A DNA stretch of 40,505 nucleotides from Nitrospiraceae bacterium (GTDB lineage: Bacteria; Nitrospirota; Nitrospiria; Nitrospirales; Nitrospiraceae): assembly GCA_037442105.1 (NCBI GenBank), contig JBBIQV010000030.1:1-40505 (forward strand), written 5' to 3'. Below are positions 15,486-32,531 of the stretch, in pieces. Positions within the stretch are counted from its first letter, which is position 1; each line of letters starts with the position of its first letter. The notes under the pieces are model-generated. The model was not told the DNA's origin and ran no database searches. It worked only from the letters and a program-made list of their open reading frames with translations. The position numbers and the translations under genes are program-made.

Positions 15486-17039
<1,554 letters not shown>

Positions 17040-17277
17040 GTTCAACTCCTGGAAGTAACGAGTGTTTGAGAAAGGGTGACCGTTTCGTGAAAGGCGGGCG
17101 CAGAATAACAAATGGTCCGGGGAAGTTCAAGGCCATGGGACTCCGGTGATCTGAGACGGCTATCCGACCGGCCTTGCAATTCCGCGTGAATTGCCCTAAG
17201 AAGCTCAAACCAAGAGGTGGTCGGAAGATGCACTGTCCGGCCAATGCGCGCAACCACCGTCGACCGGGTGAAACCGG

Positions 17278-18699
17278 ATGATCCTCCAGTTAGTTCCCCA
17301 TCGAGTCACCGACACTTCCGCATCAATCTGGCTCGGCGTGTTCGGGGCACACGCCAGGCCGGATGACGTGCAGATCCGGTTTGGCTCCCGGACTTGGTCT
17401 GCTCCTTCTGCTGCATGGACAGCCATCCAGGCGGGTGGGAATCTTGCTCCGTCCGATCGCAGGGTATGGACGCAGGCCATCACGGTGGGACCTTTCTCAC
17501 CCGGAGAAGAGGTCCGGCTCACGGGGACTCTGCGGACTGAGCCGGCGTGGTGCAGATTCCAGACGCTTCCCCGGCAGCTTCCCCGCAAGCAGGACTCTCC
17601 TTTTACAATCCTGCTCGGCTCCTGCTTCGCCTACTTCCAGGACGAGGCAGGACTGGCGGGGGCCAACCTCGCCAACCTTCCTGCTCCATTCAAACCTGCG
17701 CTCAAGTTTCTGGCAGGCGATCAGGTGTATTTGGACAACCCTGCGACCGAAGTATTACCCCGCAAGGCCCCGGACTTGGCCGCCCGCCTGCTCAACAAAT
17801 ATGTGGCGACCTGGACTCAGGGCGGGGGATGGGGAGGCTTCTCGCGTATCCTAGCTGAGGGGGGAACATACTTTCTCGCCGACGACCATGAGTTCTGGAA
17901 CAACCATCCGAATTGGAGCCCGTTGATCGCCTTCCGAGGTCCGGAAAAACGCGCTGAGTGGATTCAAATCGCCGGTGAACTGTATAAGAAGTTTCAGACT
18001 CTTCCCGACCAACAGCCGGCGCAAGCTCAACAATTTTCCGTCGAGCCGGTAGATTTTTTCCTGGCAGACACGCGCTTCGGACGAGACCTCGGTTCAAGCC
18101 GGTTTATGGACCAGGATGAATTGGGCAAGTTGTCCAATTGGCTTGCAAGTCCTGCGGACAGACCGGGCGTGCTGGTGATTGGAGCCCCGCTATTTACCCA
18201 GCCGGCTGGTTGGATCGGATCCTGGTTGGCCGATCGGTCCCTCGCAAACTATAAGGATCAGTATAGTGAGCTCGCCCAAGCGGTCCTTGACTCCCCGCGA
18301 AGCCTGCTCATACTGAGCGGAGACATCCACTGTGGCCGTGTGGCCGAAGCGATCGGTCTGTCCCCCCAGGACACTGAGCGCCGGATCACTTTGTTTGAAC
18401 TCATTTCTTCTCCCCTCGCTCTGGTGAGCAATCTGGCTGGAGGTACATTCGAGCCGGCACCAGCCCGCTTTCCGGTCGAGGCAGCGCCAGGAGATAGCCG
18501 GATCGGGGTCAAGACCAGACAATGGGATAAGTGGAATGGCACAGGCCATGGTCTCGACCAAAACCAATTCATAACACTCAGTTTTACCCAAGTCGACCAG
18601 GCCGTCAACGTCCGGGCGATCGTGTGGGAGATCACCCGCCGCACGCCGCATATCCCCATTTGCCGAGGAGCGTACGACTGCAAATTGCCTAGGAGGTAG
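17278..18699 (+). CDS. PhoD-like (alkaline phosphatase D family) metallophosphoesterase, no evident export signal
   Basis: GSC, GDQVYLD, DDHEFWNN, DTR and SGDIH motifs in PhoD order; no Tat/Sec signal peptide. Confidence 0.8.
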   Translation: MILQLVPHRVTDTSASIWLGVFGAHARPDDVQIRFGSRTWSAPSAAWTAIQAGGNLAPSDRRVWTQAITVGPFSPGEEVRLTGTLRTEPAWCRFQTLPRQLPRKQDSPFTILLGSCFAYFQDEAGLAGANLANLPAPFKPALKFLAGDQVYLDNPATEVLPRKAPDLAARLLNKYVATWTQGGGWGGFSRILAEGGTYFLADDHEFWNNHPNWSPLIAFRGPEKRAEWIQIAGELYKKFQTLPDQQPAQAQQFSVEPVDFFLADTRFGRDLGSSRFMDQDELGKLSNWLASPADRPGVLVIGAPLFTQPAGWIGSWLADRSLANYKDQYSELAQAVLDSPRSLLILSGDIHCGRVAEAIGLSPQDTERRITLFELISSPLALVSNLAGGTFEPAPARFPVEAAPGDSRIGVKTRQWDKWNGTGHGLDQNQFITLSFTQVDQAVNVRAIVWEITRRTPHIPICRGAYDCKLPRR

Positions 18700-18702
18700 C
18701 GC

Positions 18703-19542
18703 ATGATCCCTTCACGACGATCGTTCGCGACACACGACAACCCCGACCTCGAACCGGTGTCCCTCCGCAAAGGAGAACGCCGCCCTTCGCTCGGTCGGTG
18801 CATTCGCGAGGTTGTTGGCGGCAAAAAAGAAGTCGCCGGGACAATCCTGCTCCTTGGCGGGACTGATCTGACCCATTTCCGGCTCCGCGTCGCCCAAAGC
18901 CACGTACGCAGCGATACCACGCCAAGCTACTGGTCTCACATCGGAATCGTCATGCCACACAGCAAGGACAAACTCTCGCTCGTGGAAGTTCCATTAGATC
19001 CGCCCAGAGGTTTTTCGAGGATGCCCGAAACGAACGGGATTCAAACGTACCTGCGCTACCCTGATAATGACAATGAGTACGACAACACGACGCGCTTTCC
19101 CAACGTTGCGGTGGTGCGGTTTCCCATTAAAGCCGATCCCGATATGACGCTCGACGGCACGGTAAAGAAGGCGATCCGCCGCATCCAAGCTGAACGGGGC
19201 CTCCTGGACTTAACAGCCATGATCTTGCCCTGGTTGGGATTTGTCTGGGGGGCTGGAACGCCCGGCAATCCCTTGCTGGCAGGAAACGGCATCCCGTCGG
19301 CTGCGTTCGTCGAAGCGGTGTTCGCAGCGATGGGCATGGAACTGACCCCCGGCCTGGAATCACGTGCCAGTTGCCCGGAAGCGATCTGGCAGGCCGCAAA
19401 GTGGTGGCATAGCCATTATGAAACGATCAGCCCTGCTGCGACCGGGAAGAAATCGGGAGAGCACGCGCCCAAGGCCGGACACGAAAACTGTCCGTACGGC
19501 AAGTACTGGCTCGGTCAGCCCCACGCCGCCATAGTAGAGTAA
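18703..19542 (+). CDS. Hypothetical protein, permuted papain-like (YiiX/YebB/NlpC-P60) fold suspected
   Basis: RBS AGGAGG, 3 nt after the phoD-like stop; YWSHIGIV then PSAAFVEAVFAAMGMEL...CPEAIW, resembling the family SHxGI...CSELV...Y...G...P layout. Confidence 0.55.
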   Translation: MIPSRRSFATHDNPDLEPVSLRKGERRPSLGRCIREVVGGKKEVAGTILLLGGTDLTHFRLRVAQSHVRSDTTPSYWSHIGIVMPHSKDKLSLVEVPLDPPRGFSRMPETNGIQTYLRYPDNDNEYDNTTRFPNVAVVRFPIKADPDMTLDGTVKKAIRRIQAERGLLDLTAMILPWLGFVWGAGTPGNPLLAGNGIPSAAFVEAVFAAMGMELTPGLESRASCPEAIWQAAKWWHSHYETISPAATGKKSGEHAPKAGHENCPYGKYWLGQPHAAIVE

Positions 19543-19583
19543 GGAAGCAGACCCGGAACCAACGCGATGTGCGAAGATCGGAT

Positions 19584-20243
19584 TTATTCTGCCGGAGGCG
19601 GAGACGACTTGATCTGGCGCAGGAGAACATTCCACCGATCCTTGTAAGCACCGCTCTCAATCTGGTGGATGCGAGTACCAAGGTCGGAGGATTGCTTGGC
19701 CATCAGAGTACCATGCGCCCTGCTGGCATATACTGCCACAAGAAAGGGCCGGAGGCCGGCACCGCAGACACAGACGCACAGTCCACACTGGACGCAACTT
19801 ACGAACAGGTCGGCCACGCTCTGAAAATCGCCGAAGACGGCGCACCAGATGCCGCGCATGACGTCGATCCCCTGAGGGCAGGCCTGCACGCAGGAACCGC
19901 ACTTCCGACAACCGGTCACTTCGGGAAACAAGTCAAAGAGAGCCTGCTTCGGGTCATCAATCGTAGCAAGGTCATAGGTCGGCTTGGGACAGGGGTACCG
20001 TCCGACGAGGGAAAAGGAGATCCCGTCTTGAACAGGAATCCGGCAAGCCAGCCCGGTCCGCACATGCGTTTCATCGGGGAGCCGATAGAGTACGGCGCAG
20101 GCCCCGCAGCATTCCCCTAGACACCCAAGCTCTCTGGCAGATTCCCACCCGGTTTCAAGCAGCGCCTCCATCAGAGTGCTCTCTTTCGACACGCGGTATG
20201 TCTTGCCCATGAACTGGATTGAGACTCGATCCTGAAACGCCAT
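19584..20243 (-). CDS. FrdB/TfrB-like iron-sulfur subunit, copy 2 ([2Fe-2S] + 2x[4Fe-4S])
   Basis: GCLGECCGAC...LAC; CRKCGSCVQACP; CVQCGLCVCVC; ATG at 20243 with RBS AAGGAG. Confidence 0.85.
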   Translation of the reverse strand: MAFQDRVSIQFMGKTYRVSKESTLMEALLETGWESARELGCLGECCGACAVLYRLPDETHVRTGLACRIPVQDGISFSLVGRYPCPKPTYDLATIDDPKQALFDLFPEVTGCRKCGSCVQACPQGIDVMRGIWCAVFGDFQSVADLFVSCVQCGLCVCVCGAGLRPFLVAVYASRAHGTLMAKQSSDLGTRIHQIESGAYKDRWNVLLRQIKSSPPPAE

Positions 20244-20259
20244 AGCCTTCGCACTCCTT

Positions 20260-20316
20260 GTGAAGCGTGACGCGAACGGTTCCATTCCACTCACGCCTGA
20301 CGACTCACGTATTACG
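20260..20316. repeat. Heptamer inverted repeat at the frdA/frdB2 junction
   Basis: GTGAAGC GTGACGC ... TCACGCC TGACGAC TCACGTA TTACG. Confidence 0.7.
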
Positions 20317-21967
20317 GCACCTGCATCGCCACCCGCCTGGCTCTGATGTGTTCAGGGGCATAATTGGGGAGCAGCATGGGCCCCACGTTCCCATCGGAAA
20401 TCCCCGTCTCGGCCAACTCCCGCTCGAAGGATCGCACATGGTCGAGTGACAAGGCCTTTGGCGTGCCGGCTTCGTGCGCATAGGTAGACGCGGCCAGCCC
20501 CGCTCGTCTCCCGAACACCACCACATCCAGGAGGGAATTCCCCATCAGACGGTTCTTGCCGTGCACGCCGCCCGACACTTCGCCAGCCGCAAACAGTCCC
20601 GCAATCGACGTCTCACCGTTGACGCCGATCTCCAAGCCTCCGTTCTGATAGTGGAGGGTCGGATAGACCAGCATCGGTTCCCGGCCGATGTCGATCCCGA
20701 ACCGCTGGAACTGGAGATACTTGGCGCCCAGCTCCCGCTTGACTGTCCCTTCTCCATGTAGCTGGTCGATCATGGGCGAGTCCAGCCAGACGCCGGCTCT
20801 GCCGGCCGGGGTGGCAATGCCCTTGTCCTGTTCGCTGCACTCCCGAATGATGCAGGCGGACGCGACATCGCGCGGCTCAAGCGAGAAGAGAAATTCCTCG
20901 CCGTCGCGGTTGAGCAGTTGGGCGCCTAATCCGCGGACCTTTTCCGTGATGAGCAATCCGGCGTTCTGTTCCGGAAAGACCGCGCCGGTCGGATGGAACT
21001 GGGTCGAATCCAGGAAGCAGGTCTTGATCCCAGCCCGGTAGGCCATCACTAAACCGTCGGCCGTGGCGCCGTAATGGTTCGTGCAAGGGAAGCCCTGGAT
21101 GTGGAGACGGCCGAGTCCGCCGGTGGACAGGATCACCGCCTTGGCGCGCGCGACGTACAACTCTTTGGTTTCCAGATTGAGCAGGATCGCGCCCGCGCAT
21201 CGCCCGCATTCATCCAGCAGCAACTCCAACGCAGGCGTAAACTCCAGCACCCGAATGCCTGGTTGGTTCCTCGCCTCGTCGCGGAGCACGCGCATGATCT
21301 CCGCGCCCGTCATGTCGCCGCACGAGTGCAGTCGTTTGCGGGACGTGCCACCTCCATGCTGAACTCGCAGCCTTCCATCCAGATATTTATCGAACAGAAC
21401 GCCGAGCCGCTCCAGCCATTCGATGGCAACCGGCGCATCCTTGACCAACGTCTCGACGAGATCGGGCTGATTGGAGAAATGCCCGCCACCCATCGCATCG
21501 ACGTAGTGATAGCAGGGGGAGTCGGTTTCGGCTGTCGCGCCTTGGATGCCGCCCTCCGCCATGACGGTGTTGGCATCTCCATGCCGGAGCTTGGTGGCTA
21601 TGGTCACGGACGCACCGGCCTGCGCTGCCTCAAGGGCCGCCGCTGTCCCGGCTCCGCCCGCTCCGATGATCAAGACGTCCGTGTCGATGTCGACGCGATC
21701 CAGACGTACCGCATCAAGATCCAGGCGGCTATGGGATTCCAGGAGATCAACCAGTTCCACCGGCAGGCTGTCTCCCCGGTTGGGGCCGACAGCCAGCGGC
21801 CGTTTCGCGTCGAGCCGGTAGTCCGGATGGAACTGCTTCAACCGCGCCTCGCGCTCGGCCAAAGTCAAGGCCGGAAACGCCTCGCCTCGCTTCGCCCGCT
21901 CCACGCGTTGCGGACGGGTTTTCTCAACCAATCTGATCAATGTTTTCAATTCCGGTGGATAACTCAT
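20312..21967 (-). CDS. frdA: Fumarate reductase/succinate dehydrogenase-family flavoprotein (soluble, TfrA-like)
   Basis: IIGAGGAG FAD motif; dicarboxylate-site motifs QFHPTG, TEKVRG, PRD, HYQNGG and HGKNRLMGNSL; ~90 aa N-terminal extension; short C-terminus. Confidence 0.85.
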   Translation of the reverse strand: MSYPPELKTLIRLVEKTRPQRVERAKRGEAFPALTLAEREARLKQFHPDYRLDAKRPLAVGPNRGDSLPVELVDLLESHSRLDLDAVRLDRVDIDTDVLIIGAGGAGTAAALEAAQAGASVTIATKLRHGDANTVMAEGGIQGATAETDSPCYHYVDAMGGGHFSNQPDLVETLVKDAPVAIEWLERLGVLFDKYLDGRLRVQHGGGTSRKRLHSCGDMTGAEIMRVLRDEARNQPGIRVLEFTPALELLLDECGRCAGAILLNLETKELYVARAKAVILSTGGLGRLHIQGFPCTNHYGATADGLVMAYRAGIKTCFLDSTQFHPTGAVFPEQNAGLLITEKVRGLGAQLLNRDGEEFLFSLEPRDVASACIIRECSEQDKGIATPAGRAGVWLDSPMIDQLHGEGTVKRELGAKYLQFQRFGIDIGREPMLVYPTLHYQNGGLEIGVNGETSIAGLFAAGEVSGGVHGKNRLMGNSLLDVVVFGRRAGLAASTYAHEAGTPKALSLDHVRSFERELAETGISDGNVGPMLLPNYAPEHIRARRVAMQVP

Positions 21968-21976
21968 GCGTCCTTT

Positions 21977-22105
21977 CAGCGAATAGCGAATAGCAAACAG
22001 CGGGTAGCTAGAAACGAGGGGCTGCCTCTTACCGGTTCCAACCTATTCGCTATTGGCTATCAGCTATTCGCTTCAGTTTGAAAGCTGCTCGCTATTCGCT
22101 CGCAG
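21977..22105. repeat. Heptamer inverted repeat at the frdB/frdA junction
   Basis: CAGCGAA TAGCGAA TAGCAAA CAGCGGG TAGCTAG vs CCTATTC GCTATTG GCTATCA GCTATTC, plus GCTGCTC GCTATTC. Confidence 0.88.
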
Positions 22106-22891
22106 CTACAGCCACACCGTGTCCTTCGGCTTCCACTCTCCCGGTTTGCTGAGGTCCGGTTCCCGCTCCCGGTTGGCATAGAAGGTTTTCAACTCTTCTT
22201 TGCTCATCGCTTTCAGCTTGCTGAGTTTCGCGTCAAACCGGCCTTCCTTCACTTCCGCCACGCGTTTGGCGAGATGCTGGGCCTTGGGCGCCAGATATCG
22301 TCCCGCTAAGCGGCGGACATACATGGCCGCCGTGTGCTGAGAAATCTGAGCCGGGCATCGGATGGCGCACAGTCCGCACATGACGCAGGAGAATGAGACC
22401 TCGGCCGCCTTCGTCAAGTCACCCCGCCCGATCAAGGCCACGTAATCCATCACATCGATGCCCATCGGGCAGGTGCGCGAACAGGTGGCGCACCCGACAC
22501 ACCGGTACACTTCGGGAAAGAGCCGGCGAACGGATTCGTGCAAGGCCCCGGGTGCCACAGGGTGCCCGTTACTCTCGAACGATCCCACATCATAGTCAGG
22601 ACGGTTGGCCGGCACGTAGGGCAACTGCATGATCATCATGCCGGACTGGATCACGGTTTGGCAGGCCAAGCCGCTCTGCAATTGAAAGTCGCCCGGGAGC
22701 CGATAAAAAGTCCCGCAGGCTCCGCAAATGCCGCCGCGACAGCCGCAGCCCCGGATGTATTGGTAGCCGGAGTATTCGACCGCCTTCATGATCGTCAGTC
22801 CCTCCGGCACTTCGCAGTACCGGCCCATGATCTGAAGCGGAATCAATCTTTCACTGCTCTTGCCGTTGATGGATCCGTTGATATCGCTCAT
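22106..22891 (-). CDS. frdB: FrdB/TfrB-like iron-sulfur subunit, copy 1 ([2Fe-2S] + 2x[4Fe-4S])
   Basis: GCGCRGGICGACG...LACQ; CVGCATCSRTCP; CVMCGLCAIRCP; ATG at 22891 with RBS AAAGAGG. Confidence 0.85.
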   Translation of the reverse strand: MSDINGSINGKSSERLIPLQIMGRYCEVPEGLTIMKAVEYSGYQYIRGCGCRGGICGACGTFYRLPGDFQLQSGLACQTVIQSGMMIMQLPYVPANRPDYDVGSFESNGHPVAPGALHESVRRLFPEVYRCVGCATCSRTCPMGIDVMDYVALIGRGDLTKAAEVSFSCVMCGLCAIRCPAQISQHTAAMYVRRLAGRYLAPKAQHLAKRVAEVKEGRFDAKLSKLKAMSKEELKTFYANREREPDLSKPGEWKPKDTVWL

Positions 22892-22907
22892 GGTCCAAAC
22901 CTCTTTC

Positions 22908-22986
22908 AAGGTTAAGGTTGAGGCTAAGGTCAAGGAAAAGAACTGACCGATCGTCTCACCTAAGCCTTAACCTCAGCCTCAACCTT
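22908..22986. repeat. Hexamer-periodic inverted repeat at the flxA/frdB junction
   Basis: AAGGTT AAGGTT GAGGCT AAGGTC AAGG vs CCTAAG CCTTAA CCTCAG CCTCAA CCTT. Confidence 0.88.
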
Positions 22987-22987
22987 C

Positions 22988-23821
22988 CTAAAAATCCGGA
23001 TACATTCTTCTCGTTTGCGCGGCGGTGTAGACCGGACCTTCCTTGCAAATGTAAAGGTCACCGACGTTGCACCTGCCACATTTCCCCAGGCCGCACTTCA
23101 TCTTGTTTTCCAGCGTCAGGTAGATCTGCTCCGGGGTGAAGCCCAGCTTTTCGAGGGATTGCAGCGTAAACTTGATCATGATCGGCGGGCCGCACATGAT
23201 CACATAGGCGTTCTCCGGAGACGGATTGATCTTCTCCAGCACAGCCGGCAGCAGCCCGACCATGCCATCCCACCCTTCCGTCACACCCCAGGGATCTACC
23301 GTCTTCACCATGTTGACGTCGGAGCGCCGCTCCCACTCTGCGATCTGCCTCTGATACACGAGGTCTCTCGTGCTTCGAGCTCCATAGAGAATCGTGATGG
23401 CTCCGTAGTCGCCCCGCTGCTCCAGGCAGTCGTACAACACCGACGTCACAGCCGGCAGCCCGATCCCGCCGGAGATGAACAGAAGGTTTTTCCCCTTGAA
23501 CAGTTCCATGGGAAAACGATTGCCATAGGGTCCACGGAATCCGACCGTGTCTCCTTGATTCAACGACGCCAGCGCGCCGGTCACCCGGCCGATCTTCCGG
23601 AATGTGATGTCCAGCGAGCGTTGCCGAAAGGATGACGAAGCCAAGGTCAAGGTGGATTCCCCTGCGCCGAAGGCCGAGATCAGCCCGAACTGGCCCGGCT
23701 GAAACGAAAAGGAGTCCCGCACCGCCTGATCCTGGAACTCCAGCTCGAAGGTCCAGGTGTCCACCGTCTCCTGGACAGAAGTCTTGATCGTGGCGAGATA
23801 TGGCAAATATAAATTGCGCAT
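22988..23821 (-). CDS. flxA: FAD/NAD(P)-binding oxidoreductase with [2Fe-2S] (FlxA/AsrB/HydG/PyrK family)
   Basis: PGQF, RGPYGN, GGIGL, YGAR, CGPPIM and KMKCGLGKCGRC...CKEGPV motifs. Confidence 0.88.
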   Translation of the reverse strand: MRNLYLPYLATIKTSVQETVDTWTFELEFQDQAVRDSFSFQPGQFGLISAFGAGESTLTLASSSFRQRSLDITFRKIGRVTGALASLNQGDTVGFRGPYGNRFPMELFKGKNLLFISGGIGLPAVTSVLYDCLEQRGDYGAITILYGARSTRDLVYQRQIAEWERRSDVNMVKTVDPWGVTEGWDGMVGLLPAVLEKINPSPENAYVIMCGPPIMIKFTLQSLEKLGFTPEQIYLTLENKMKCGLGKCGRCNVGDLYICKEGPVYTAAQTRRMYPDF

Positions 23822-23830
23822 ACAAAGCCT

Positions 23831-23877
23831 TCAGCGATCAGCATTCAGCTGTCAGCTAATGGCTGACGGCTGATGGC
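23831..23877. repeat. Heptamer inverted repeat at the flxB/flxA junction, overlapping the flxB 3' end
   Basis: TCAGCGA TCAGCAT TCAGCTG TCAGC / GCTAATG GCTGACG GCTGATG GC. Confidence 0.85.
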
Positions 23878-24907
23878 GTGGGTTGGCTTCGGCCAACCCG
23901 CTCACTTTCTCCATCATCTCCGCAATATCCAAACCGACGTAACAGACCCGGATGCAGCGCCCGCAACCCACGCAGCCCTTGGCCGAAAATTTCGTCGGGT
24001 AAAAGTGGAACTTGCACATGAACCGGTTCCGCCACCGCTGGGACTGCAAGGATCGAGGGTTGTGCCCGCTCGCATGGGCCGCGAAATGGTCGAACTGGCA
24101 GGCGTCCCAGTTTTTTCGCCGTTCGCCCTGGAAGGCGCCACCCTCGTCGGTCAGGTCGAAGCAGTGGCAGGTCGGGCAGACATAGGTGCAGGCTCCGCAG
24201 CCTAAACACTTGGCGGCATGCTCGGCCCAGACGGCATCCTGATAATGAGAGGGGTCCGACAGCCAGGCCAGAATCTTCTCGACATCGGATGTTTCGATAA
24301 CCGGCGGAGGAACGACGGGACGGAACGACTCCGACCCCTCTTCGAAATGCGAGGCCCAGCGGGCAACCAGCTTCTCCCCCTTGTCTGTCACCGGCTCCAC
24401 GGCAAAGTTCCCCGCGACCGTTTCCCGAAGCAATAGGTCGCTCCCCTCTGTCGCATCCGGCGCCAGCCCCACGCTGGTGCAGAAACAGGACCGGTCCCCC
24501 CTCGCACAGGCGAGCGTCACCACCGTGGTCCGCTCGTAACGATCGAGAAAGAGCGGGTCATCTTCTCCCTGCCAGACAAATACCGAGCGCAGCGCGGCGA
24601 TGCCGGCAGCATCGCAGGCGCGGGAACCCAGCAGGACGGTGTCCGGCCATTGACCAGCGCCTCCCACATCTTTCATCTCCACGCTGGACTTCTTAATGGT
24701 GTAGAGCATGACCGGCTCGGTCTGGGGAAACAGAAAGTCCTTGATGGAGTTGCGTCCGATGACCTGGCTGAAATCCAGCGCCGAGGCCCGATCTACGGGA
24801 GCATAGACCGGTTGCCCGGCCCGCGTGACGGGCCCTACAACACGGACCTTCTCCGCGAGCATCGCTTCCACCCAGCGATCGAGGTGTTGTCTAGTTAGTA
24901 GTTTCAT
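23852..24907 (-). CDS. flxB: 4Fe-4S dicluster protein (FlxB/AsrA/HydB family)
   Basis: RACD, CFCTSVG, CLGCGACTYVCPTCHCF, WDACQ and GCVGCGRCIRVC motifs. Confidence 0.88.
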   Translation of the reverse strand: MKLLTRQHLDRWVEAMLAEKVRVVGPVTRAGQPVYAPVDRASALDFSQVIGRNSIKDFLFPQTEPVMLYTIKKSSVEMKDVGGAGQWPDTVLLGSRACDAAGIAALRSVFVWQGEDDPLFLDRYERTTVVTLACARGDRSCFCTSVGLAPDATEGSDLLLRETVAGNFAVEPVTDKGEKLVARWASHFEEGSESFRPVVPPPVIETSDVEKILAWLSDPSHYQDAVWAEHAAKCLGCGACTYVCPTCHCFDLTDEGGAFQGERRKNWDACQFDHFAAHASGHNPRSLQSQRWRNRFMCKFHFYPTKFSAKGCVGCGRCIRVCYVGLDIAEMMEKVSGLAEANPRHQPSAIS

Positions 24908-24917
24908 CGACTCTACA

Positions 24918-24992
24918 AGCTAGCAGCGAGTAGCGAGCAGCGAATAGCTGGTAGCTCAGAGCTATTCGCTGTTCTCTATTTGCTATTCGCTA
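24918..24992. repeat. Heptamer inverted repeat at the mvhD-flxC/flxB junction
   Basis: CAGCGAG TAGCGAG CAGCGAA TAGCTGG TAGC vs GCTATTC GCTGTTC TCTATTT GCTATTC GCTA. Confidence 0.88.
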
Positions 24993-24996
24993 TGTC

Positions 24997-26409
24997 TCAC
25001 CGAATAAAATTCTCCTTATCGTCCGGGTGATAGACCACCATCGGCGGATGGGCCTTCTCATCGTAACCGGACCGATAGTCGAAGGCTTCCTCGGACACGA
25101 CGGCCAGTTTTCGATTGATCAAATTCAACGGAATGTTGGCGGGACAGACCCGGTCGCACTCGCCGCAATAAGTGCACCGTCCTGCCAGATGGATCGCGCG
25201 AACGAGATTCCAGGAAAAGTTCCCCTGCGGGTGCGCGCTGGTCTCGACCCACTGCGGATTGTTCTTCTCCGTGATGCACCGGTCGCAGTAGCAGAGCGGG
25301 CAGACTTGGCTGCAGGCATAGCACTTGATGCAGCGGTCGAAATGCTCGGCCCAGAAGTCCCACCGCTCACCCGGACTTTTGCGGTCCAGAGCTTCGATCT
25401 GCCGCTGGACTTCGGATGGCCCTTGTTGCTCGACGGATCGCGCAACCGGCTCGCCCACGACATGGTCGGCCAGCCGAGGCGTCTGCACATCGCAGCCGAT
25501 GCACTTGGGCGCCAGTAAATCGGGAGCCGCTTTCCCCGCCCACAGTTCCTGCCGATAGATCACACCGGAGCATGAGACTCCCAAGATCACGATGCCGTCC
25601 CGCCCAATCTGTTCTTCCTGCAACAGCACTGTGATGGTCTTGATGTCGCAGCCCTTCGCGACGATCGCGGGTTTGCCCAACTTCGCAATGTCCCCTTGCT
25701 TACGCGGCAGATAGACCGAGAGATTGTTCACGCAGAGGGGGTTGAAGACGAGGCGGGACACGTCGCCAGGTTCGGTGATGAACACCGGGACGATGCGCCG
25801 CTGGCGCTTGGCCCACCCGTACCCGATGACCACCTTGACCTCGCCCTTCTCCAACAGCTCGCGTGCCTTCTCTCTGAGAGCCGGAACGAACGGCGCGTCT
25901 TCGGGAAGCGGCACCTCATCCGGGATGCCGGGCTGCCAGGCCTCGCTCCACACCAGAAGGGGACAGGCTCCGCCGTTTGCGGCGGTGCCTGTCCCCTTAA
26001 GGGCGTGGTACTTCGTGAACGGACCCAACCCGCGGATGGTCTCCGTGGCCTGGTCCACCATCTTGGCCCACTTGTTCGCTTCGGAGGCCGATACCCAGGC
26101 ATACTGGATTCGTTCGGGTTCGATCCCTACGAAATCCGTCAAGCCCTTGAAGAAGATCCACCGGCGCTTAGCGTGGAGGTTTCCGGAGATGTAGTGGCAG
26201 TCGCCCGGATGGCAACCGGAGATCAGGACTCCGTCCGCTCCCTGCTCGAACGCTTTGATGATGAAGAGCGGATCCACTCGGCCCGTGCAGGGAACCCGGA
26301 TCAGGCGCACATTCGGCCGGTACTGAGTACGGGTGACCCCGGCGAGGTCCGCCCCCGCATAGGTGCACCAGTTGCACACAAACGCGACGATTTTGGGTTC
26401 CCAACTCAT
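24997..26409 (-). CDS. MvhD/FlxD-type [2Fe-2S] domain fused to a FlxC/FdhB-like 4Fe-4S domain
   Basis: N-terminal FVCNWCTYAGAD, VPCTGR and GCHPGDCHY (MvhD); C-terminal KGCD, CIKCYACSQVCPLCYCDRC and GRCTYCGECDRVCP. Confidence 0.9.
   Translation of the reverse strand: MSWEPKIVAFVCNWCTYAGADLAGVTRTQYRPNVRLIRVPCTGRVDPLFIIKAFEQGADGVLISGCHPGDCHYISGNLHAKRRWIFFKGLTDFVGIEPERIQYAWVSASEANKWAKMVDQATETIRGLGPFTKYHALKGTGTAANGGACPLLVWSEAWQPGIPDEVPLPEDAPFVPALREKARELLEKGEVKVVIGYGWAKRQRRIVPVFITEPGDVSRLVFNPLCVNNLSVYLPRKQGDIAKLGKPAIVAKGCDIKTITVLLQEEQIGRDGIVILGVSCSGVIYRQELWAGKAAPDLLAPKCIGCDVQTPRLADHVVGEPVARSVEQQGPSEVQRQIEALDRKSPGERWDFWAEHFDRCIKCYACSQVCPLCYCDRCITEKNNPQWVETSAHPQGNFSWNLVRAIHLAGRCTYCGECDRVCPANIPLNLINRKLAVVSEEAFDYRSGYDEKAHPPMVVYHPDDKENFIR
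25957..25998. repeat. REP-like hairpin in frame within the mvhD-flxC linker
   Basis: AAGGGGACAGGC-T-CCGCCG-TTTG-CGGCGG-T-GCCTGTCCCCTT: 18-bp stem with one mismatch. Confidence 0.85.
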
Positions 26410-26500
26410 AGCCAATAGCTCACAGCCAACAGCGAGTAGCTAACGCGAATAGCAAACAGCGACAGCTCCGAGCTATTAGCTGCTCGCTGCTAGCTATTCG
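26410..26500. repeat. Heptamer inverted repeat spanning the whole hdrA/mvhD junction
   Basis: TAGCCAA TAGCTCA CAGCCAA CAGCGAG TAGCTAA...TAGCAAA CAGCGA vs GCTATTA GCTGCTC GCTGCTA GCTATTC GCTA. Confidence 0.88.
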
Positions 26501-28480
26501 CTAAAGAGCGCAAATCGCGGCATAGATCTGCGCATCGGTGTAGCCGCGCAGATCGATCGTCTTTGAGTGGCAGGCGGCGACACAGACCCCGCAACCCACG
26601 CAGACCCCTTCGTTCACCTTCGCCACATACCGAAGCACATTGCCGGCCCGATCTTTCACCGCCTCCCGTTGGATCGCATGGTACGGACAGGCCGTTTCGC
26701 AATCCCAGCAGGCATTGCAGGTCGCGGTGTTAACCTCGGCCACGACCGGCTCGCGGCTCAGCTCCTCGTTGGAAAAAAGCGCGAGCACTTTGCTCGCCGC
26801 CGCCGACCCCTGCGCCACCGACGTGGGAATGTCCACCGGACCGATGCAGGCTCCGGCCAGGTAGATGCCGGCCGTGGCGGTTTCCACCGGACGGAGCTTG
26901 GGATGGTACTCGTTGTAAAACCCGTACCCGTCGTAACTGATCCCCAGCCGTTTGGCCAAGTCCTTGGCCCCGATCCGGGGAACGACTGCCGTCGCCAGCA
27001 CGACCAGATCCGCCTCCAGCTCCACCTGGCTCCCGCTCAAGGTGTCGGCGCCCTGAACCAGCAGTCTTCCATTGCGTTCGTACACACGCGAGACACGCCC
27101 GCGCAGATACACGGCACCTTCATGCTCGACCGCGCGCCGGTGGAATTCTTCATAGCGCTTCCCGCCGCATCGGATGTCCATATAGAAGATGAAGGACTGC
27201 CCCTCATGCACCTTGTGTTTGTAGAGCATCGCGTGCTTGGCGGTGTACATGCAGCAAATGTTCGAGCAATAGGCCACGCCCTTGCTCTCGTCACGCGAAC
27301 CGGAACATTCGATGAACACCACCCGGTTCGGCACCTTTCCATCTGAAGGCCGTTTGATGTCGCCGCCGGTCGGGCCGGAAGCGCTGGCCAGCCGTTCGAA
27401 GTCCAATCCGGTGATCACGTCCTTGTAGCGACCGCCGCCGAACTCCGGAAATCGCTCGACGCCCATCACCTCGTAGCCGGTGGCAACCAGCACTGCCCCG
27501 ACCTTCTCCGTCACGAACGTGTCTTCCTGATCGAAGTCGATGCAGTTCGGGCCGCAGACCTTCGCGCAGACGCCGCACTTCTTCTTGTCCTTGACGTACT
27601 TGGGGCAATGGTCGCGGTCGATGATGGGAATCGCGGGGACGGCCTGGGGGAACGGGATATAGATGAGCTTGCGTTTACCCATCTCCGAATCGAACTCGTT
27701 CGGCGCGGTGAACGGACACTTGGCGGTGCATTCGCCGCACTCCGTGCAGAGTTCCTCAATCACCGACTTGGCTTTCTTGCGGATCTTGACGGTGAAGTTC
27801 CCGATGTAGCCCTCGACCGACTCCACCTCGGAGTAGGTGTACAAGCGAATCTTGGGATGGTGCGCAGCTTCCACCATTTTCGGGGTGAGGATGCACTGCG
27901 AGCAGTCCATCGTCGGGAAGGTTTCGGAGAGCTTGGCCATCTGTCCGCCGATCGAGGGCTCCTTCTCGACGAGGATGACCTCGTGGCCGGCCTCGGCAAT
28001 GTCCAGCGCGGCCTGGATGCCTGCGACGCCTCCGCCGATGACCAACGCCTTCTTGGTGACGGGAACTCTGATCTTGTCGAGAGGCCCGTTTCGACGGACT
28101 CGCTCCACGGTCATACGGGTGATGTCGAGAGACTTCTCCGTACCGATGACTTTGGTCTTGTCCTCATGGACCCACGAGCAATGTTCCCGGATGTTGGCGA
28201 TCTCGCACTGGAAGGGATTGAGGCCGGCTTCCTCCGAGGCCTTGCGGAAAGTCTTCTCGTGCATGTGCGGCGAGCAGGCGGCAATGACGACCTTGTCGAG
28301 CCCGTTGGTCTTAATGATCTCCTTGACAAGCTGCTGCCCCGGAGAAGAGCACAAGAACCGGCAGTTCTCCGTATGGACAACGCCGGGCAGGTTCTTGGCC
28401 TCGTCGGCCACCTTGGCCGTATCCACCGTACCCGCGATATTGTTTCCACACTGGCAGACAAAGACGCCGATCTTGCTCAT
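26501..28480 (-). CDS. hdrA: Heterodisulfide reductase subunit A (flavin-based electron-bifurcating family), 659 aa
   Basis: IGVFVCQCG, AACSP, NIREHCSWVH, VIGGGVAGI, TFPTMDCSQCILTP, inserted ferredoxin domain, GLDFER, CSNICCMYTAK and a C-terminal 2x4Fe-4S domain. Confidence 0.96.
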   Translation of the reverse strand: MSKIGVFVCQCGNNIAGTVDTAKVADEAKNLPGVVHTENCRFLCSSPGQQLVKEIIKTNGLDKVVIAACSPHMHEKTFRKASEEAGLNPFQCEIANIREHCSWVHEDKTKVIGTEKSLDITRMTVERVRRNGPLDKIRVPVTKKALVIGGGVAGIQAALDIAEAGHEVILVEKEPSIGGQMAKLSETFPTMDCSQCILTPKMVEAAHHPKIRLYTYSEVESVEGYIGNFTVKIRKKAKSVIEELCTECGECTAKCPFTAPNEFDSEMGKRKLIYIPFPQAVPAIPIIDRDHCPKYVKDKKKCGVCAKVCGPNCIDFDQEDTFVTEKVGAVLVATGYEVMGVERFPEFGGGRYKDVITGLDFERLASASGPTGGDIKRPSDGKVPNRVVFIECSGSRDESKGVAYCSNICCMYTAKHAMLYKHKVHEGQSFIFYMDIRCGGKRYEEFHRRAVEHEGAVYLRGRVSRVYERNGRLLVQGADTLSGSQVELEADLVVLATAVVPRIGAKDLAKRLGISYDGYGFYNEYHPKLRPVETATAGIYLAGACIGPVDIPTSVAQGSAAASKVLALFSNEELSREPVVAEVNTATCNACWDCETACPYHAIQREAVKDRAGNVLRYVAKVNEGVCVGCGVCVAACHSKTIDLRGYTDAQIYAAICAL

Positions 28481-28541
28481 ATAGCCGTAAGCTTTCAGCG
28501 AATAGCTAATAGCTGTTAGCTGCTCGCTACCAGCTGTTCGC
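28481..28541. repeat. Heptamer repeat at the hdrB/hdrA junction, overlapping the hdrB 3' end
   Basis: CAGCGAA TAGCTAA TAGC / GCTGTTA GCTGCTC GCTACCA GCTGTTC GC. Confidence 0.82.
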
Positions 28542-29565
28542 GCACGATCCCTTTCGCCCGCAGCACCGGGCGTGGATCGATCAGGTTCTCGCCCAGACCC
28601 AACTCTTCCTCCGGCAACCCGAGCGCGAGGCCCAGCAATTGCGTGAAGTACAGAACAGGCAGCGTGGCGCCGGGGGTCTGGTCCCCTTCTTCGCGCATCG
28701 GGGGACTGACACCCTTCCCCGCGTCTGCGCGTGGCGTCTGTCCCCGTCCGGAAGGGGAGAGGCACTGTCGCGGACGACTGAGCCAGTCCCCGTGCAGGGG
28801 GTCAGACACCGCCTCGCTTCGCGTGGCCAGAAGGGTGTCTGACCCCTGGGCTTTCTGGCTCCGTTCGAGATTGTAGAAACAGAGCGGGCAGGTGGTCGTC
28901 ACCAGCTCAGCGCCGAACGCCTGAGCGGAGGCCACGACTGCGCCGGACAGCCGGACCACGACTTCCTCATTGGACATGGCCAGATGCGATCCGCAACATT
29001 CCCCTCGGTTGGGAAACTCGATGGCTTCGCACCCGATGGCTTCAAGAAACTCCTCGAAGATGCGGGTCGTTTCTCCTCCATCGATCGCCGCTGATTTCGG
29101 CCGGAGTAACGTGCAGCCGTAATACGCTCCGACCTTCAGCTTCTTGAGGTTGCGCGTCACCCGCTTTTTCAACTCAGAGAACCCCAGGCGATCCCTCAGG
29201 ACCTCCAGGAGGTGCACGACTTCCACATCTCCCTCGTAGCTCGTCCCCAGGAAGTCGTTAATGACCGTCCTGCGCCCCTCATCTTCCTTGATGACCTGGT
29301 TGGTTCGCCTCAGCGTGTTATAGCAAAAAGAGCAGAGGGTCGAGACCGTGCCACCCGCTTTTTGGGATTGAATGAGCACATTGGTAGGCCCGGTCAGGCC
29401 GATGATGTTGTTCGGGGTCAGCGGGAACGAGGCACCGCAGCAATTCCACTGGGCCAACTCGGCCAACTCGATGCCGAGCAACTTCAGCGACCGGCGCGCG
29501 GAAAGGTCGAATGGCTTGGCGACCGTGTTGAGCGTGCAGCCGGGATAGTAGGGGATGCTTGTCAT
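28516..29565 (-). CDS. hdrB: Heterodisulfide reductase subunit B (two CCG domains) with a ~55-60 aa insertion near the C-terminus
   Basis: YYPGC...WNCCG...LCSFC and YYGC...ECCG...TCPLC; the PVLYFTQLLG end follows an atypical insert. Confidence 0.92.
   Translation of the reverse strand: MTSIPYYPGCTLNTVAKPFDLSARRSLKLLGIELAELAQWNCCGASFPLTPNNIIGLTGPTNVLIQSQKAGGTVSTLCSFCYNTLRRTNQVIKEDEGRRTVINDFLGTSYEGDVEVVHLLEVLRDRLGFSELKKRVTRNLKKLKVGAYYGCTLLRPKSAAIDGGETTRIFEEFLEAIGCEAIEFPNRGECCGSHLAMSNEEVVVRLSGAVVASAQAFGAELVTTTCPLCFYNLERSQKAQGSDTLLATRSEAVSDPLHGDWLSRPRQCLSPSGRGQTPRADAGKGVSPPMREEGDQTPGATLPVLYFTQLLGLALGLPEEELGLGENLIDPRPVLRAKGIVREQLVASS
28672..28847. repeat. Tandem cluster of REP-like GGGG...CCCC palindromes inside hdrB
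   Basis: GGGGTCTGGTCCCC (28673-28686); GGGGACTGACAC...GCGTCTGTCCCC (28701-28745); GGGGAGAGGCAC...GAGCCAGTCCCC (28754-28791); perfect 13-bp IR GGGGTCAGACACC / GGTGTCTGACCCC (28798-28846). Confidence 0.85.
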
Positions 29566-29598
29566 AAGCTGACAGCTAATAGCTGATGGCTGATAGCT
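29566..29598. repeat. Heptamer tandem repeat filling the hdrC/hdrB junction
   Basis: GCTGACA GCTAATA GCTGATG GCTGATA GC. Confidence 0.85.
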
Positions 29599-30009
29599 TC
29601 AAGGAATCAGTTTCCGAAACCCTGCCACCACCGCCTGTTGCGGGGATCGTTCGAGAAAACCGTCAGGCACTTGCGCCAACGCAACCGGTCCCTTGCCCTG
29701 GCGAAGGCTCATCCGCCTGAGGGCTTCCATCACCTTCGACGGGTCCAGACACTTCGGACAGCGGGCCTGGCACTGGAGACAGGACACGCACAGCCACATG
29801 GAATTGGCCTGTAACGCCATCCGCTCCTGGCCTAATTGTACGAACCGAATCACCTGCGAGACGGGGATCTCCATCGCGAACGAAACCGGGCATGAACCTG
29901 AGCAGTTCCCGCACTGATAACAACGGGACAGATCCTCGCCGCTTTCCCGCTCGACCTGGTCGAGAAAGGCGTTCTGCTCACTGATGGTGTCGAGTGAAAT
30001 CTTCATCAT
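29599..30009 (-). CDS. hdrC: Heterodisulfide reductase subunit C (2x[4Fe-4S])
   Basis: CYQCGNCSGSCP and WLCVSCLQCQARCP; start ATG at 30009 or 30006. Confidence 0.92.
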   Translation of the reverse strand: MMKISLDTISEQNAFLDQVERESGEDLSRCYQCGNCSGSCPVSFAMEIPVSQVIRFVQLGQERMALQANSMWLCVSCLQCQARCPKCLDPSKVMEALRRMSLRQGKGPVALAQVPDGFLERSPQQAVVAGFRKLIP

Positions 30010-30018
30010 CGAACAGTC

Positions 30019-30086
30019 AATGCAAAATGAAAAATGCAAAATTTCGGAAGCCGCGATTCACATTCTGCATTTTGCACTTTGAACTT
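30019..30086. repeat. AT-rich heptamer inverted repeat at the CBS/hdrC junction
   Basis: AATGCAA AATGAAA AATGCAA AATT vs CATTCTG CATTTTG CACTTTG AACTT. Confidence 0.85.
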
Positions 30087-30102
30087 ATCATTGATCGGCA
30101 GG

Positions 30103-30495
30103 CTAGCTCCTCGGATACTTCGTCAGAAAGTTCACCAAATCGCGGACCGACACCAGGCCGATCATCTTTCCGTCCCTCTGCACTCCCAGATGGCGGACCC
30201 CTTCTTTGGCCATCAGGTCGTTGGCATCCAGCAATGTCGCCTCCGCCTCAATTCGCAGCAGCGGCGCAGACATGATCCGCTCCACCGGCGTCTTGTCCGG
30301 ATCGAGATCCTCTGCCATGGCGCGGCGAGCCAAATCCGTGTCGGTCACAATCCCCACCACGGCTTCTTTGTTGGTAACCAGAAGGCTGCCGATCCTGAAA
30401 TCCCGCATCAGTTTGGCTGAACGGCGAATGGGCTCGTCCCGATCAACGGTCTTGAGTTTCTCGACAGGGGTCATGATGAGTTTGACTGGTACCAT
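30103..30495 (-). CDS. Stand-alone CBS-pair protein
   Basis: VKLIMT...IGSLLV...VGIVTDTDL and VERIMS...RHLGV...IGLVSVRDL. Confidence 0.92.
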   Translation of the reverse strand: MVPVKLIMTPVEKLKTVDRDEPIRRSAKLMRDFRIGSLLVTNKEAVVGIVTDTDLARRAMAEDLDPDKTPVERIMSAPLLRIEAEATLLDANDLMAKEGVRHLGVQRDGKMIGLVSVRDLVNFLTKYPRS

Positions 30496-30501
30496 AAGCC
30501 A

Positions 30502-30577
30502 CGAATAGCGAACAGCGCATGGCGAGCAGCGAATAGCTCCGAGCTGTTAGCTGTTCGCTAAAGGCTGCTCGCTATTC
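30502..30577. repeat. Heptamer inverted repeat in the operon leader
   Basis: TAGCGAA CAGCGCA TGGCGAG CAGCGAA TAGCTC vs GAGCTGTTA GCTGTTC GCTAAAG GCTGCTC GCTATTC. Confidence 0.85.
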
Positions 30578-30594
30578 TCAAAACAGACCGGTGG

Positions 30595-30658
30595 ATTGTG
30601 GCTAAGGACGTAAGGCACGTCTATGACGGTCGTCATCCCACTGACTGACAATCGTCAG
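30595..30658 (-). promoter_or_regulatory. Crp/Fnr-type class II promoter of the CBS-hdr-flx-frd operon
   Basis: Two palindromes, ATGAC-N4-GTCAT (30623-30636) and CTGAC-N4-GTCAG (30645-30658), with centres 22 bp apart. A minus-strand -10-like CACAAT (30600-30595) places the proximal box at about -41.5. Confidence 0.7.
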
Positions 30659-30725
30659 GAAAGGGAGCATGTTGGATAGCCGGAGGACGAGGGAAGGACG
30701 GGTAAAGAAGGGCTTTTGTTATCGG

Positions 30726-31445
30726 CTACTGGAGAGAACCGGCAATCTTGTTCAGTCGTTCCGGTTTCAGCAGCGTAATCTCGCTTCCGTTCGTATTCAC
30801 CAAACGTTCGCGTCTGAACCGGCTCAGAAGCCTGATGACGGTTTCCGGGGCAGCCCCGATCAGTTCCGCCAGTTCCTCGCGCGTTAACCGGATGTCGAGC
30901 GTGATACCGTCTGAACCGCGGTGGCCGAAGCGTTGTCCAAGACTAAGCAGGAGGGCAGCCAGACGTTCCATCGTCTTGCAGAAGGGAGCGCGCTCGCCGT
31001 TCATCGTGGCGAACAACACCCGCCCACTCACGAGCTGAAGAAGTTCAATCGCCAGTGCCGGGTTCTTCTGCAGCAGTTCCAAATACCCCCGCCGATCGAT
31101 CAGGCAAATACGCGAGGGTTCGAGCGTCTCGCAAGTCACCTCATGCGCAACGCTCTCGCAGAAGCCGTTGCACTCGATCAGCTCACCAGGCCCCACAATG
31201 CCGACGATGCGCCGATGTCCTCGAGACGAAGACGCAGTGAGCTTGGCCTTGCCGGCGCACAAGACGTAAATCCCCAGGCACGGATGTCCCTCATAGAAGA
31301 CGACTTGGTGCGGCTGGTAGGTAAACCGGTGCAGGAATCGCTGGAACGTCGTGGCATCTGCCTCTGCCGCGCGGCAGACCAGACTCTGTGCGCGGACGGG
31401 ACACGTCTGGCACGTGTTCGAGCTTATTCCCGCTCGTCCACCCAT
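30726..31445 (-). CDS. Crp/Fnr-family transcriptional regulator with an N-terminal Cys cluster
   Basis: CQTCPVRAQSLVC N-terminus, cNMP-like beta-roll (VFYEG...GPGELI), HTH LTREELAELIGAAPETVIRLLSRF; RBS GGAGGAG before the ATG at 31445. Confidence 0.92.
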   Translation of the reverse strand: MGGRAGISSNTCQTCPVRAQSLVCRAAEADATTFQRFLHRFTYQPHQVVFYEGHPCLGIYVLCAGKAKLTASSSRGHRRIVGIVGPGELIECNGFCESVAHEVTCETLEPSRICLIDRRGYLELLQKNPALAIELLQLVSGRVLFATMNGERAPFCKTMERLAALLLSLGQRFGHRGSDGITLDIRLTREELAELIGAAPETVIRLLSRFRRERLVNTNGSEITLLKPERLNKIAGSLQ

Positions 31446-31709
31446 CAGTGTTTTCTCCTCCGCGACAGGAGGTCCCAGCAATAAGGAAGCGTCCCTGAGG
31501 ACGTGTGCCAGGATCGCCTACTCACTTCACGGCCCGTTATCGTAGGGGAAGGGGAACAAGGGAGTCAAGCAGACCCCTCCCGGGCGGTTTTCCCCAAAGA
31601 GAACAAGGCATTGTTCTCTACAGTCGGCGGGTACTCCTTCCGATAAAGGCAGCAAAGGTTCGGGATGAACCCGGCCATACACCTATTTGAATGTGAAGGA
31701 GGGTGCTCC

Positions 31710-32531
31710 ATGCCGACCGACTGCTTGTCCACACTCACCAACCGCGACATCGAGATCGCCAAGGCGATTCCGCTCTACCACACGCCGGGTCACCAGGTCT
31801 ATTGGATCGGAACCGTCACCGGCGGGGAGGAGATCGAGTGCAACGCCTACCTCCTGGTAGACGAGGGTGAGGGCTACTTGCTGGAGCCGGGTGGGTTCGA
31901 TCGTTTCACCCCGATCCAGGAGAAAGTCGACTCGGTGTTCTCTGCCCGGTCTATCACCCACCTCCTCTTCAGCCACCAGGATCCGGACGTGTGCGGCGCG
32001 GCCGCCGGCTGGCTGGAGTTCAACCCGCAGCTCAACGTGGTCTGTCCGTCGCTCTGGCAACGGTTCATGCCACACTACATGGTGTACAACGCCACGTACA
32101 AGACCATGAAGGACGACGGGCTGACTCTGCCGTTGAAAAGCGGAGGATCGCTCAAATGCCTCTCGGCTCCATACCTGCACTCCCCGGGGAACATGGTGGT
32201 CTTCGATCCCATCAGCGGCTTCCTATTCTCCGGCGATATCGGGGCAGCCGTGTACGCGGACGGCAAACCGCGATTGGTGATTGATGACTGGAATGAGCAG
32301 ATCAAGGCCATGCAGGGCTTTCATCAGCGCTATATGAGCTCTAATCGGGCCGTCTCAGCCTTCATCCGCAGCGTCGCGGGTCTTCCGATCAAGGCCATCG
32401 TTCCGCAGCATGGAGTGATCTATCGGGGCGACGAGGTGCAGAAGTTTTTCCAGTGGCTGGGGGCGCTGCCGTGCGGTGTGGACTATCTCTTCCCAGCCAG
32501 TAGCGGACAGCAAACAGCCAATGGCAGATGA
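31710..32531 (+). CDS. Diiron metallo-beta-lactamase-fold protein (ODP / FprA N-terminal domain-like), no flavodoxin domain
   Basis: CNAYL, EPGG, SHQDPDV, LHSPGN, FSGDIG, FHQRYM and PQHG motifs; RBS AGGAGGG. Confidence 0.85.
   Translation: MPTDCLSTLTNRDIEIAKAIPLYHTPGHQVYWIGTVTGGEEIECNAYLLVDEGEGYLLEPGGFDRFTPIQEKVDSVFSARSITHLLFSHQDPDVCGAAAGWLEFNPQLNVVCPSLWQRFMPHYMVYNATYKTMKDDGLTLPLKSGGSLKCLSAPYLHSPGNMVVFDPISGFLFSGDIGAAVYADGKPRLVIDDWNEQIKAMQGFHQRYMSSNRAVSAFIRSVAGLPIKAIVPQHGVIYRGDEVQKFFQWLGALPCGVDYLFPASSGQQTANGR

Follow-up and report, generated by a model that had tools for sequence, protein, structure and literature searches.

A ten-gene operon joining a complete HdrABC-MvhD/Flx set to a soluble fumarate reductase was identified on the minus strand, at positions 19584–30495, of a 40,505-bp stretch of Nitrospiraceae bacterium DNA (assembly GCA_037442105.1, contig JBBIQV010000030.1; the whole stretch is called the window below). 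Open reading frame (ORF) and family searches recovered ten ORFs in the order CBS-hdrC-hdrB-hdrA-mvhD/flxC-flxB-flxA-frdB-frdA-frdB2, confirming the co-oriented set and the families listed in an earlier note made from the letters alone. The ten genes are real and intact and form a conserved operon; they are spaced by 30–138 bp and are presumably co-transcribed. In the reading slightly favored here, the operon encodes a thiol-free, NAD(P)H-driven bifurcation of electrons to ferredoxin and fumarate that is induced at low O2.

From gene content, conservation, residues and context, we infer a soluble bifurcating complex that uses no quinone and probably no thiol and passes NAD(P)H electrons to fumarate and ferredoxin. 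Oxidation of NAD(P)H would take place at FlxA, and the electrons would move through FlxB, FlxC and MvhD to the HdrA flavin, from which the low-potential electron would reach ferredoxin (Fd) or the Fe-S subunit of 2-oxoglutarate or pyruvate:ferredoxin oxidoreductase (OGOR/PFOR). The high-potential electron would travel through HdrC and the two HdrB clusters, acting as a wire, to a docked FrdB at the distal HdrB cluster, and then to the non-covalent FAD of FrdA, where fumarate would be reduced to succinate. The net reaction would be 2 NAD(P)H + fumarate + 2 Fd(ox) → succinate + 2 Fd(red). The fumarate potential is given as +33 mV in the available part of PMC5861303, and the free-energy change (ΔG) of the coupled reaction was −18 to −64 kJ per 2 NAD(P)H (NAD(P)H at −280 to −370 mV, ferredoxin at −440 to −500 mV). 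In Nitrospirales, the module would be accessory, likely activated at low O2 by an adjacent FNR-like regulator, and would recover energy otherwise lost at the fumarate step while supplying the ferredoxin that OGOR needs.

The electron-input and bifurcation subunits carry the expected motifs. FlxA (22988–23821), the proposed electron entry, combines FAD/NAD(P)-binding and [2Fe-2S] parts, with four cysteines retained in 59/59 sequences; FlxB (23852–24907) was assigned by family searches as an AsrA/HydB-like Fe-S protein, and MvhD/FlxD is fused to FlxC (24997–26409; FlpD at residues 9–131 plus two 4Fe-4S motifs). HdrA (26501–28480, 659 aa), the candidate bifurcating flavoprotein, matched 5ODC chain A over residues 3–654 (E 3e-209). 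Its Lys415 aligns with Lys409 of 5ODC and its Glu362 with Glu356; both residues were present in 44/44 aligned rows after the duplicate locus L090 was dropped. Lys409 is described as the partner of FAD-N5 in the accessible text of PMC6405883.

The fumarate reductase subunits likewise point to a soluble enzyme. FrdA (20312–21967, FAD_binding_2) retained the dicarboxylate-site His, Thr, Glu, Arg, Arg, His and Arg in 76/76 homologs (residues identified by E. coli numbering), and Asn replaced the covalent-FAD His in 76/76. Non-covalent FAD is linked to one-way fumarate reduction. The NadB-type Glu was absent. TfrA was the best NCBIfam model (345.5 bits against a cut-off of 718); FrdA fell below every curated NCBIfam cut-off and had about 95 extra N-terminal residues. 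FrdB (22106–22891) has one [2Fe-2S] motif and a pair of complete 4Fe-4S motifs but lacks a CCG domain. The hallmarks of quinone-linked succinate dehydrogenase/fumarate reductase (complex II) were absent from FrdAB, with Asn at the His position, two full 4Fe-4S motifs and no hydrophobic helix. Among all operon proteins, a hydrophobic 19-residue window of at least 1.6 fell only on the FrdB2 cysteine motif, with no evident transmembrane segment.

A direct contact between FrdB and HdrBC was predicted by complex modeling. Three chains (HdrC, HdrB 1–340 and FrdB 12–261) were modeled with 40-row alignments alongside 3 controls, and the FrdB-HdrBC pair scored 0.69 against 0.01 for the best control, with at least 92% of contacts shared between runs and a partner predicted local distance difference test (pLDDT) of at least 76. 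The score mark was reached by 116/157 solved complexes and 2/215 mismatched pairs, counts that apply only roughly here. FrdB residues 115–158, including Cys131 and Cys134, were placed against HdrC 111–132 and HdrB 9–14, 39–44 and 55–62, a region that includes Cys10 and Cys42 of the N-terminal CCG domain. That domain holds the distal HdrB cluster, and the proximal HB1 holds Cys234, according to the available part of a preprint (bioRxiv 10.64898/2026.08.25.746951). FrdB is predicted to dock directly on the HdrC tail and the distal HdrB cluster, an arrangement that appears new, and of the two wiring options in the earlier note the prediction favors direct wiring over the thiol shuttle.

The HdrC tail itself is distinctive. 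HdrC (29599–30009, 136 aa, 2x[4Fe-4S]) ends in an invariant PQxAxVxxFRK motif; solved methanogen HdrC proteins (183–191 aa) aligned only up to profile position 108–117 of 135, and the HdrC of a bacterial Hdr-Flx locus without Frd was longer and lacked the tail. Of the loci returned by a search seeded with HdrC, 63 were of the short-tail and 15 of the long type, and 2 were ambiguous. A frd or fumarase gene was found in 45/63 short-tail loci versus 1/15 long ones (21/24 versus 0/5 for loci of at least 8 kb), an association that is suggestive only, because the long-HdrC set consists mostly of near-identical sequences. The tail may thus mark fumarate-linked Hdr loci.

Several findings weigh against the proposed wiring and role. 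The near-identity of the long-HdrC controls is one, and frd itself lay inside the fetched stretch in just 12/63 short-tail loci. The modeling job differed from the calibration set in using three chains and its own alignments; HdrBC is an already solved pair and the FrdB 4Fe-4S domain is HdrC-like, a likeness that may contribute to the score; and conservation at the interface was barely raised (0.68/0.77/0.83 versus 0.63/0.69/0.76 elsewhere). All ten HdrB cluster cysteines, which a thiol-reducing site would need, were kept in 40/40 sequences. In Endoriftia, tfrAB expression did not track that of the other cluster genes, as far as the available part of PMC11636981 reports. ACL-like (ATP-citrate lyase) genes were found in just 7/28 non-Nitrospirales hosts, and the operon appears dispensable because it is missing from a 99%-complete genome of the same genus (G001) in which nxrA is present.

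The conserved cysteines are also the starting point for an alternative, held to be unlikely, in which Flx-HdrABC bifurcates to ferredoxin and a disulfide, and the thiol is re-oxidized at an FrdAB-bound or second HdrB, as in methanogen Tfr. This thiol shuttle was proposed in the accessible supplement of PMC6315080, and it agrees with the methanogen-like predicted fold of HdrB and with TfrA as the best model for FrdA. DsrC was found in 4/6 hosts of a minimal hdrCB-frdBA unit, against 0/9 Nitrospirales genomes and 1/22 other full-cluster hosts (completeness is not given for the genomes of the 22 and the 6). Against the shuttle also stand the predicted contact of FrdB with the distal HdrB cluster in a model that has HdrC bound as well and, as weak evidence, the missing CCG part of FrdB: in the fusion searches no FrdB-CCG fusion was found, only a single long form of FrdB that has an FrdA domain and nine long CCG proteins (33–36% identity), none with a listed 2Fe-2S domain. 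Loss of the methanogen His154, replaced by Thr, Met or Phe in these HdrB proteins, was considered as a sign of lost thiol chemistry and rejected, as a canonical bacterial HdrB also lacks it.

Quite improbable, in our judgment, is a non-bifurcating or fermentative sink in which anoxic NADH, with or without reduced ferredoxin, is discharged onto fumarate for redox balance rather than CO2 fixation. The FNR-like gene and its boxes, the patchy distribution, the missing kor genes and the native frdBA kept by 8/8 operon hosts would fit such a sink, but the bifurcation residues are strictly conserved, a plain NADH:fumarate reaction would not require a route through seven subunits, and sucCD-korABC lies downstream of the operon in many relatives. 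Very unlikely is a substrate other than fumarate, or a reversed complex (succinate + Fd(red) → 2 NADH). The scores of FrdA below all curated cut-offs and its N-terminal extra would allow it; the invariant dicarboxylate residues, the missing NadB-type Glu and covalent-FAD His, the fumarase/sucCD/kor context, a reverse reaction endergonic by 18–64 kJ, and the covalent-FAD SdhA and SdhE-like protein encoded elsewhere in the host all argue against it. Beyond the slightly favored ferredoxin/fumarate bifurcation, a wider proposal is put forward only tentatively, as rather doubtful: short-tail HdrC/HdrB would represent a widespread thiol-free Hdr branch, with HdrB as a wire to a bound fumarate reductase and fumarate as the high-potential acceptor, which some nitrite-oxidizing Nitrospirales activate at low O2 to reduce ferredoxin with NADH for the carboxylases of the reductive tricarboxylic acid (rTCA) cycle.

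The host is assigned to Nitrospirales, with the family inferred from the closest loci (FrdA 88–89%, titled Nitrospiraceae/Nitrospira) and gene content. Its assembly is 86.7% complete, so DsrC, hydrogenase and other genes are reported as not found rather than absent. An rTCA cluster, aclBA-acn-idh-frdB-frdA-sucCD, was found on contig C26, and the host's cycle is complete, Nitrospira-type and equipped with its own frdBA. Because this native frdBA lies in the acl-acn-idh-sucCD cluster, the operon FrdA is a second, accessory enzyme and not the host's only rTCA fumarate reductase; the two FrdA proteins are 51% identical, and the native copy also has Asn at the His site. Two five-subunit-type 2-oxoacid oxidoreductases and one further were found, with POR/OGOR and acl on other contigs than the operon, together with four subunits of bd-like oxidases (O2-reducing type), a separate SdhA with the covalent-FAD His, an SdhE-like CCG protein and NadB. 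Genome-wide searches of the host gave 0 matches to DsrC and none to nxrA; no [NiFe] large subunit was found, only two weak N-terminal matches, one of them within the complex I locus, and NuoG was the one molybdopterin-family protein. The earlier note's description of a Nitrospira-like rTCA host, and of an operon with no membrane anchor, hydrogenase or dsrC, agrees with these window and genome scans. A 24-heme cytochrome (C3:93567–95366) and an octaheme HAO-like protein adjoining cytochrome b and two ammonium transporters (C43:3183–4607) were also seen in the host genome (G000).

Within the class, the operon is sparsely distributed. Full-length hdrA was found in 2/41 relatives, the host included, and FlxA at 71% identity or more in 8/301 genomes of the class, with matches of only 35–39% in 18 further genomes. 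Native frdA was kept in 8/8 operon-bearing Nitrospirales genomes. Full-length nxrA was found in 4/8 (G137, G150, G252 and G287), with a 1575-bit match to the NxrA of PDB 7B04, and gave no match in the other four, all of which are fragmented. In G137 (L131–L132), the operon lies within about 15–25 kb of the native acl-acn-frdBA cluster. For L002, a named close relative, greater abundance in dysoxic groundwater is reported in the available part of PMC11033732. FrdB2 (19584–20243; [2Fe-2S] and 2x[4Fe-4S]) was found only in Nitrospirales loci; it was 49% identical to the native FrdB on C26 and 31% to the operon FrdB, and clustered with native FrdB in a tree with a long-branch warning. It appears to be a diverged paralog of the native rTCA-cluster FrdB and perhaps links native FrdA to the module.

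Outside Nitrospirales, the gene order is widely shared. A search for the same synteny found hdrCBA-mvhD-flxCBA-frdBA complete in 35/80 related loci seeded with FrdA; 26 had flxA-frdB-frdA, 6 a minimal hdrC-hdrB-frdB-frdA, and 13 were too short. The flanks of the 80 contained sucC in 47, korA in 32 and fumarase in 25. The cluster is widespread among deltaproteobacterial metagenome-assembled genomes (MAGs), with MvhD and FlxC as separate ORFs in many of these loci, and the hdrC-hdrB-frdB-frdA adjacency persisted where hdrA, flx and kor were permuted (L218, L228). Because ACL-like genes are so infrequent in these hosts, the module is not tied to the canonical rTCA cycle and would serve the reductive C4 branch more generally. 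In the FrdA tree, which carried a long-branch warning, the 20 operon-type rows fell into a single clade whose base is open and whose sister group is the native rTCA copies; the tree resolved no donor, and no direction of transfer is claimed.

Related arrangements were seen among these loci. The minimal unit without adjacent flx (L012, L014, L050, L062, L063 and L065, the last a cultured species) occurred in hosts with several hdrA elsewhere (6/6), and it is possibly a fumarate reductase fed by DsrC or multiple HdrA. In L183, L184, L186, L190, L193, L199 and L217, a short-tail hdrC-hdrB lies downstream of fumarase, several hdrA and in some cases another hdrCB come after it, and the fetched stretch contains no frd; in L183 and L186, the short-tail hdrCB is also downstream of a carboxylase and malate dehydrogenase. 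In L029, L037 and similar loci, frdA is followed by sucCD-korABC and then a CCG-anchored sdhABE, which places a reductive beside an oxidative enzyme.

Upstream of the operon lies a gene for an FNR-like CRP/FNR regulator (30726–31481, minus strand; best NCBIfam model Fnr, below cut-off) with an N-terminal Cx2Cx8C and a central Cys, a cysteine motif found in 4/5 homologs tested. Such a gene was upstream of cbs in 6/80 loci, all Nitrospirales. The tandem CBS-domain protein (30103–30495; Pfam CBS) is confined to Nitrospirales loci. Two palindromic boxes of the TGA(C)-N6-(G)TCA type, 22 bp apart, were invariant in 7/7 aligned promoters: box 1 (30645–30658, TGAC-N6-GTCA type) in TGA..TCA and box 2 (30623–30636) in TGAC..TCAT. 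The case for the boxes rests on this cross-genome conservation, because the host genome contains 57 copies of the exact TGAC-N6-GTCA core; a loose FNR pattern (70 matches versus 42.7 expected) was uninformative alone, and a promoter/terminator scan did no better than chance (3 versus 3.2 and 11 versus 10.5). The FNR-like protein is a candidate O2-sensing activator, and the operon would be induced at low O2. Divergent from its gene is an ODP-family (oxygen-binding di-iron) protein (31665–32531, plus strand), which fits an O2-sensing neighborhood. A perfect TGAC-N6-GTCA palindrome was also seen in the host genome upstream of another CBS-domain match (C37:3015, C37:3363), a possible shared regulon.

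The regulator and the boxes were overlooked by the earlier note, and an in-frame repeat in hdrB is a further correction. HdrB (28516–29565), with its two CCG domains, contains a mobile-type repeat of about 91 bp (28701–28791) that had 6 other matches in the genome (79–96% identity) and folds at z = −2.2. The repeat region (residues 245–296) had a pLDDT below 50, and the insertion was present only in the window and L001 among 40 HdrB sequences. It would represent the protein-coding insertion of a structured element resembling a miniature inverted-repeat transposable element or repetitive extragenic palindrome (MITE/REP-like).

A chimeric contig was ruled out: a single 11.6-kb contig in runs of two other studies covers 16000–27272 and so connects frd, flx and a portion of hdrA with the flank on the purH side. 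In three studies, of subsurface and hot-spring metagenomes, runs contained 87–94% of the sampled words, and no RNA run was listed among those with the locus; no single piece covers the whole stretch, and runs X2 and X3 are possibly non-independent. Likely corrected starts are 30009 for hdrC, 28480 for hdrA, 26409 for mvhD-flxC, 22891 for frdB and 20243 for frdB2. Low-complexity runs resembling GCTATT, GCTATC and CAGCTA occupy most intergenic gaps of the operon (19584–30720). Convergent with its end, on the plus strand (17278–19542), are two ORFs of 473 and 279 aa with no Pfam matches, the first metallophosphoesterase-like by eye.

The underlying idea dates from 2019. The accessible parts of Rubin-Blum 2019 (PMC6315080) describe korABCD-tfrAB-flxABCD-hdrABC in tubeworm symbionts and Thioflavicoccus and propose both a thiol route and direct bifurcation; the available text of PMC11636981 describes operon-like expression of the symbiont cluster, tfrAB excepted. 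The earlier note's interpretation is consistent with the HdrA residues, the favorable ΔG and the host's O2-reducing bd-like oxidases, but the novelty it implied finds no support, given this publication and the spread of the cluster among deltaproteobacterial MAGs; the occurrence of the cluster in relatives of nitrite oxidizers appears new. Literature searches, which left most subscription journals outside their coverage, turned up neither a description of the operon from Nitrospirales nor a purified complex, and no biochemical test of the 2019 proposal. Term searches gave 0 matches for Hdr or Frd in the Manganitrophaceae paper (PMC9040806), which was rejected as a prior description, and no mention of Hdr in two marine Nitrospirales papers.

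Ferredoxin reduction in rTCA autotrophs is called unresolved in PMC10052474, and fumarate reduction in Nitrospirota is called unexplained in the available part of a 2026 survey (PMC13147460), a table of which puts the waste of NADH-dependent fumarate reduction at ~58 kJ/mol. Ferredoxin coupling would regain part of this and yield exactly the two ferredoxins that OGOR uses per turn, which, if true, would be a concrete answer to low-potential electron supply in O2-respiring rTCA autotrophs. The locus adds a compact kor-free operon, its occurrence in nxrA-bearing genomes, and two means of testing direct wiring against the thiol shuttle, a sequence marker in the HdrC tail and an interface predicted to the residue.

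Compared with known systems, the operon resembles methanogen HdrABC-MvhAGD (5ODC) in its full-length HdrA with the Lys409/Glu356 equivalents and Fe-S cysteines, its MvhD, and the ten cysteines and fold of HdrB; unlike that complex, it has no hydrogenase, its HdrC differs in the tail and is shorter by about 50 residues, and His154 is replaced. A soluble FrdA/TfrA-like flavoprotein is shared with methanogen TfrAB, Hydrogenobacter FrdABCDE and the Nitrospira 'AB-only' Frd, whereas the operon FrdB lacks the CCG part of TfrB, the B subunit of TfrAB being an Fe-S and CCG fusion. The Aquifex gene names in PMC10052474 gave no support for equating the Flx subunits with Hydrogenobacter FrdCDE. The A/AB Frd forms in the available part of the PMC13147460 survey, where Nitrospirota Frd is called probably novel, are not co-located with Hdr-Flx in the surveyed organisms; the second Frd copy of the operon is, a case outside that survey. 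The sulfate-reducer FlxABCD-HdrABC (Desulfovibrio and others) has the same seven modules with NADH entry at FlxA, and its acceptor is proposed to be DsrC in the accessible supplement of PMC6315080, whereas DsrC was not found in the Nitrospirales operon hosts; a canonical Flx-Hdr cluster in G335 includes no frd, and its HdrC is long and lacks the tail. By gene content, the closest likeness drawn is to the cluster of tubeworm symbionts (Ca. Endoriftia, Escarpia symbiont) and Thioflavicoccus mobilis, as presented in the parts of those papers available, with co-oriented Flx, HdrABC and soluble TfrA-like FrdAB. Unlike it, the Nitrospirales operon has neither kor, which was not found in the window, nor other rTCA genes, is accessory to a native frdBA, and carries the MvhD-FlxC fusion, FrdB2, the CBS gene and the FNR-like regulator in hosts without DsrC, some with nxrA. 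The locus is best described as a putatively regulated, kor-free accessory variant in Nitrospirales, some of them nitrite oxidizers by gene content.

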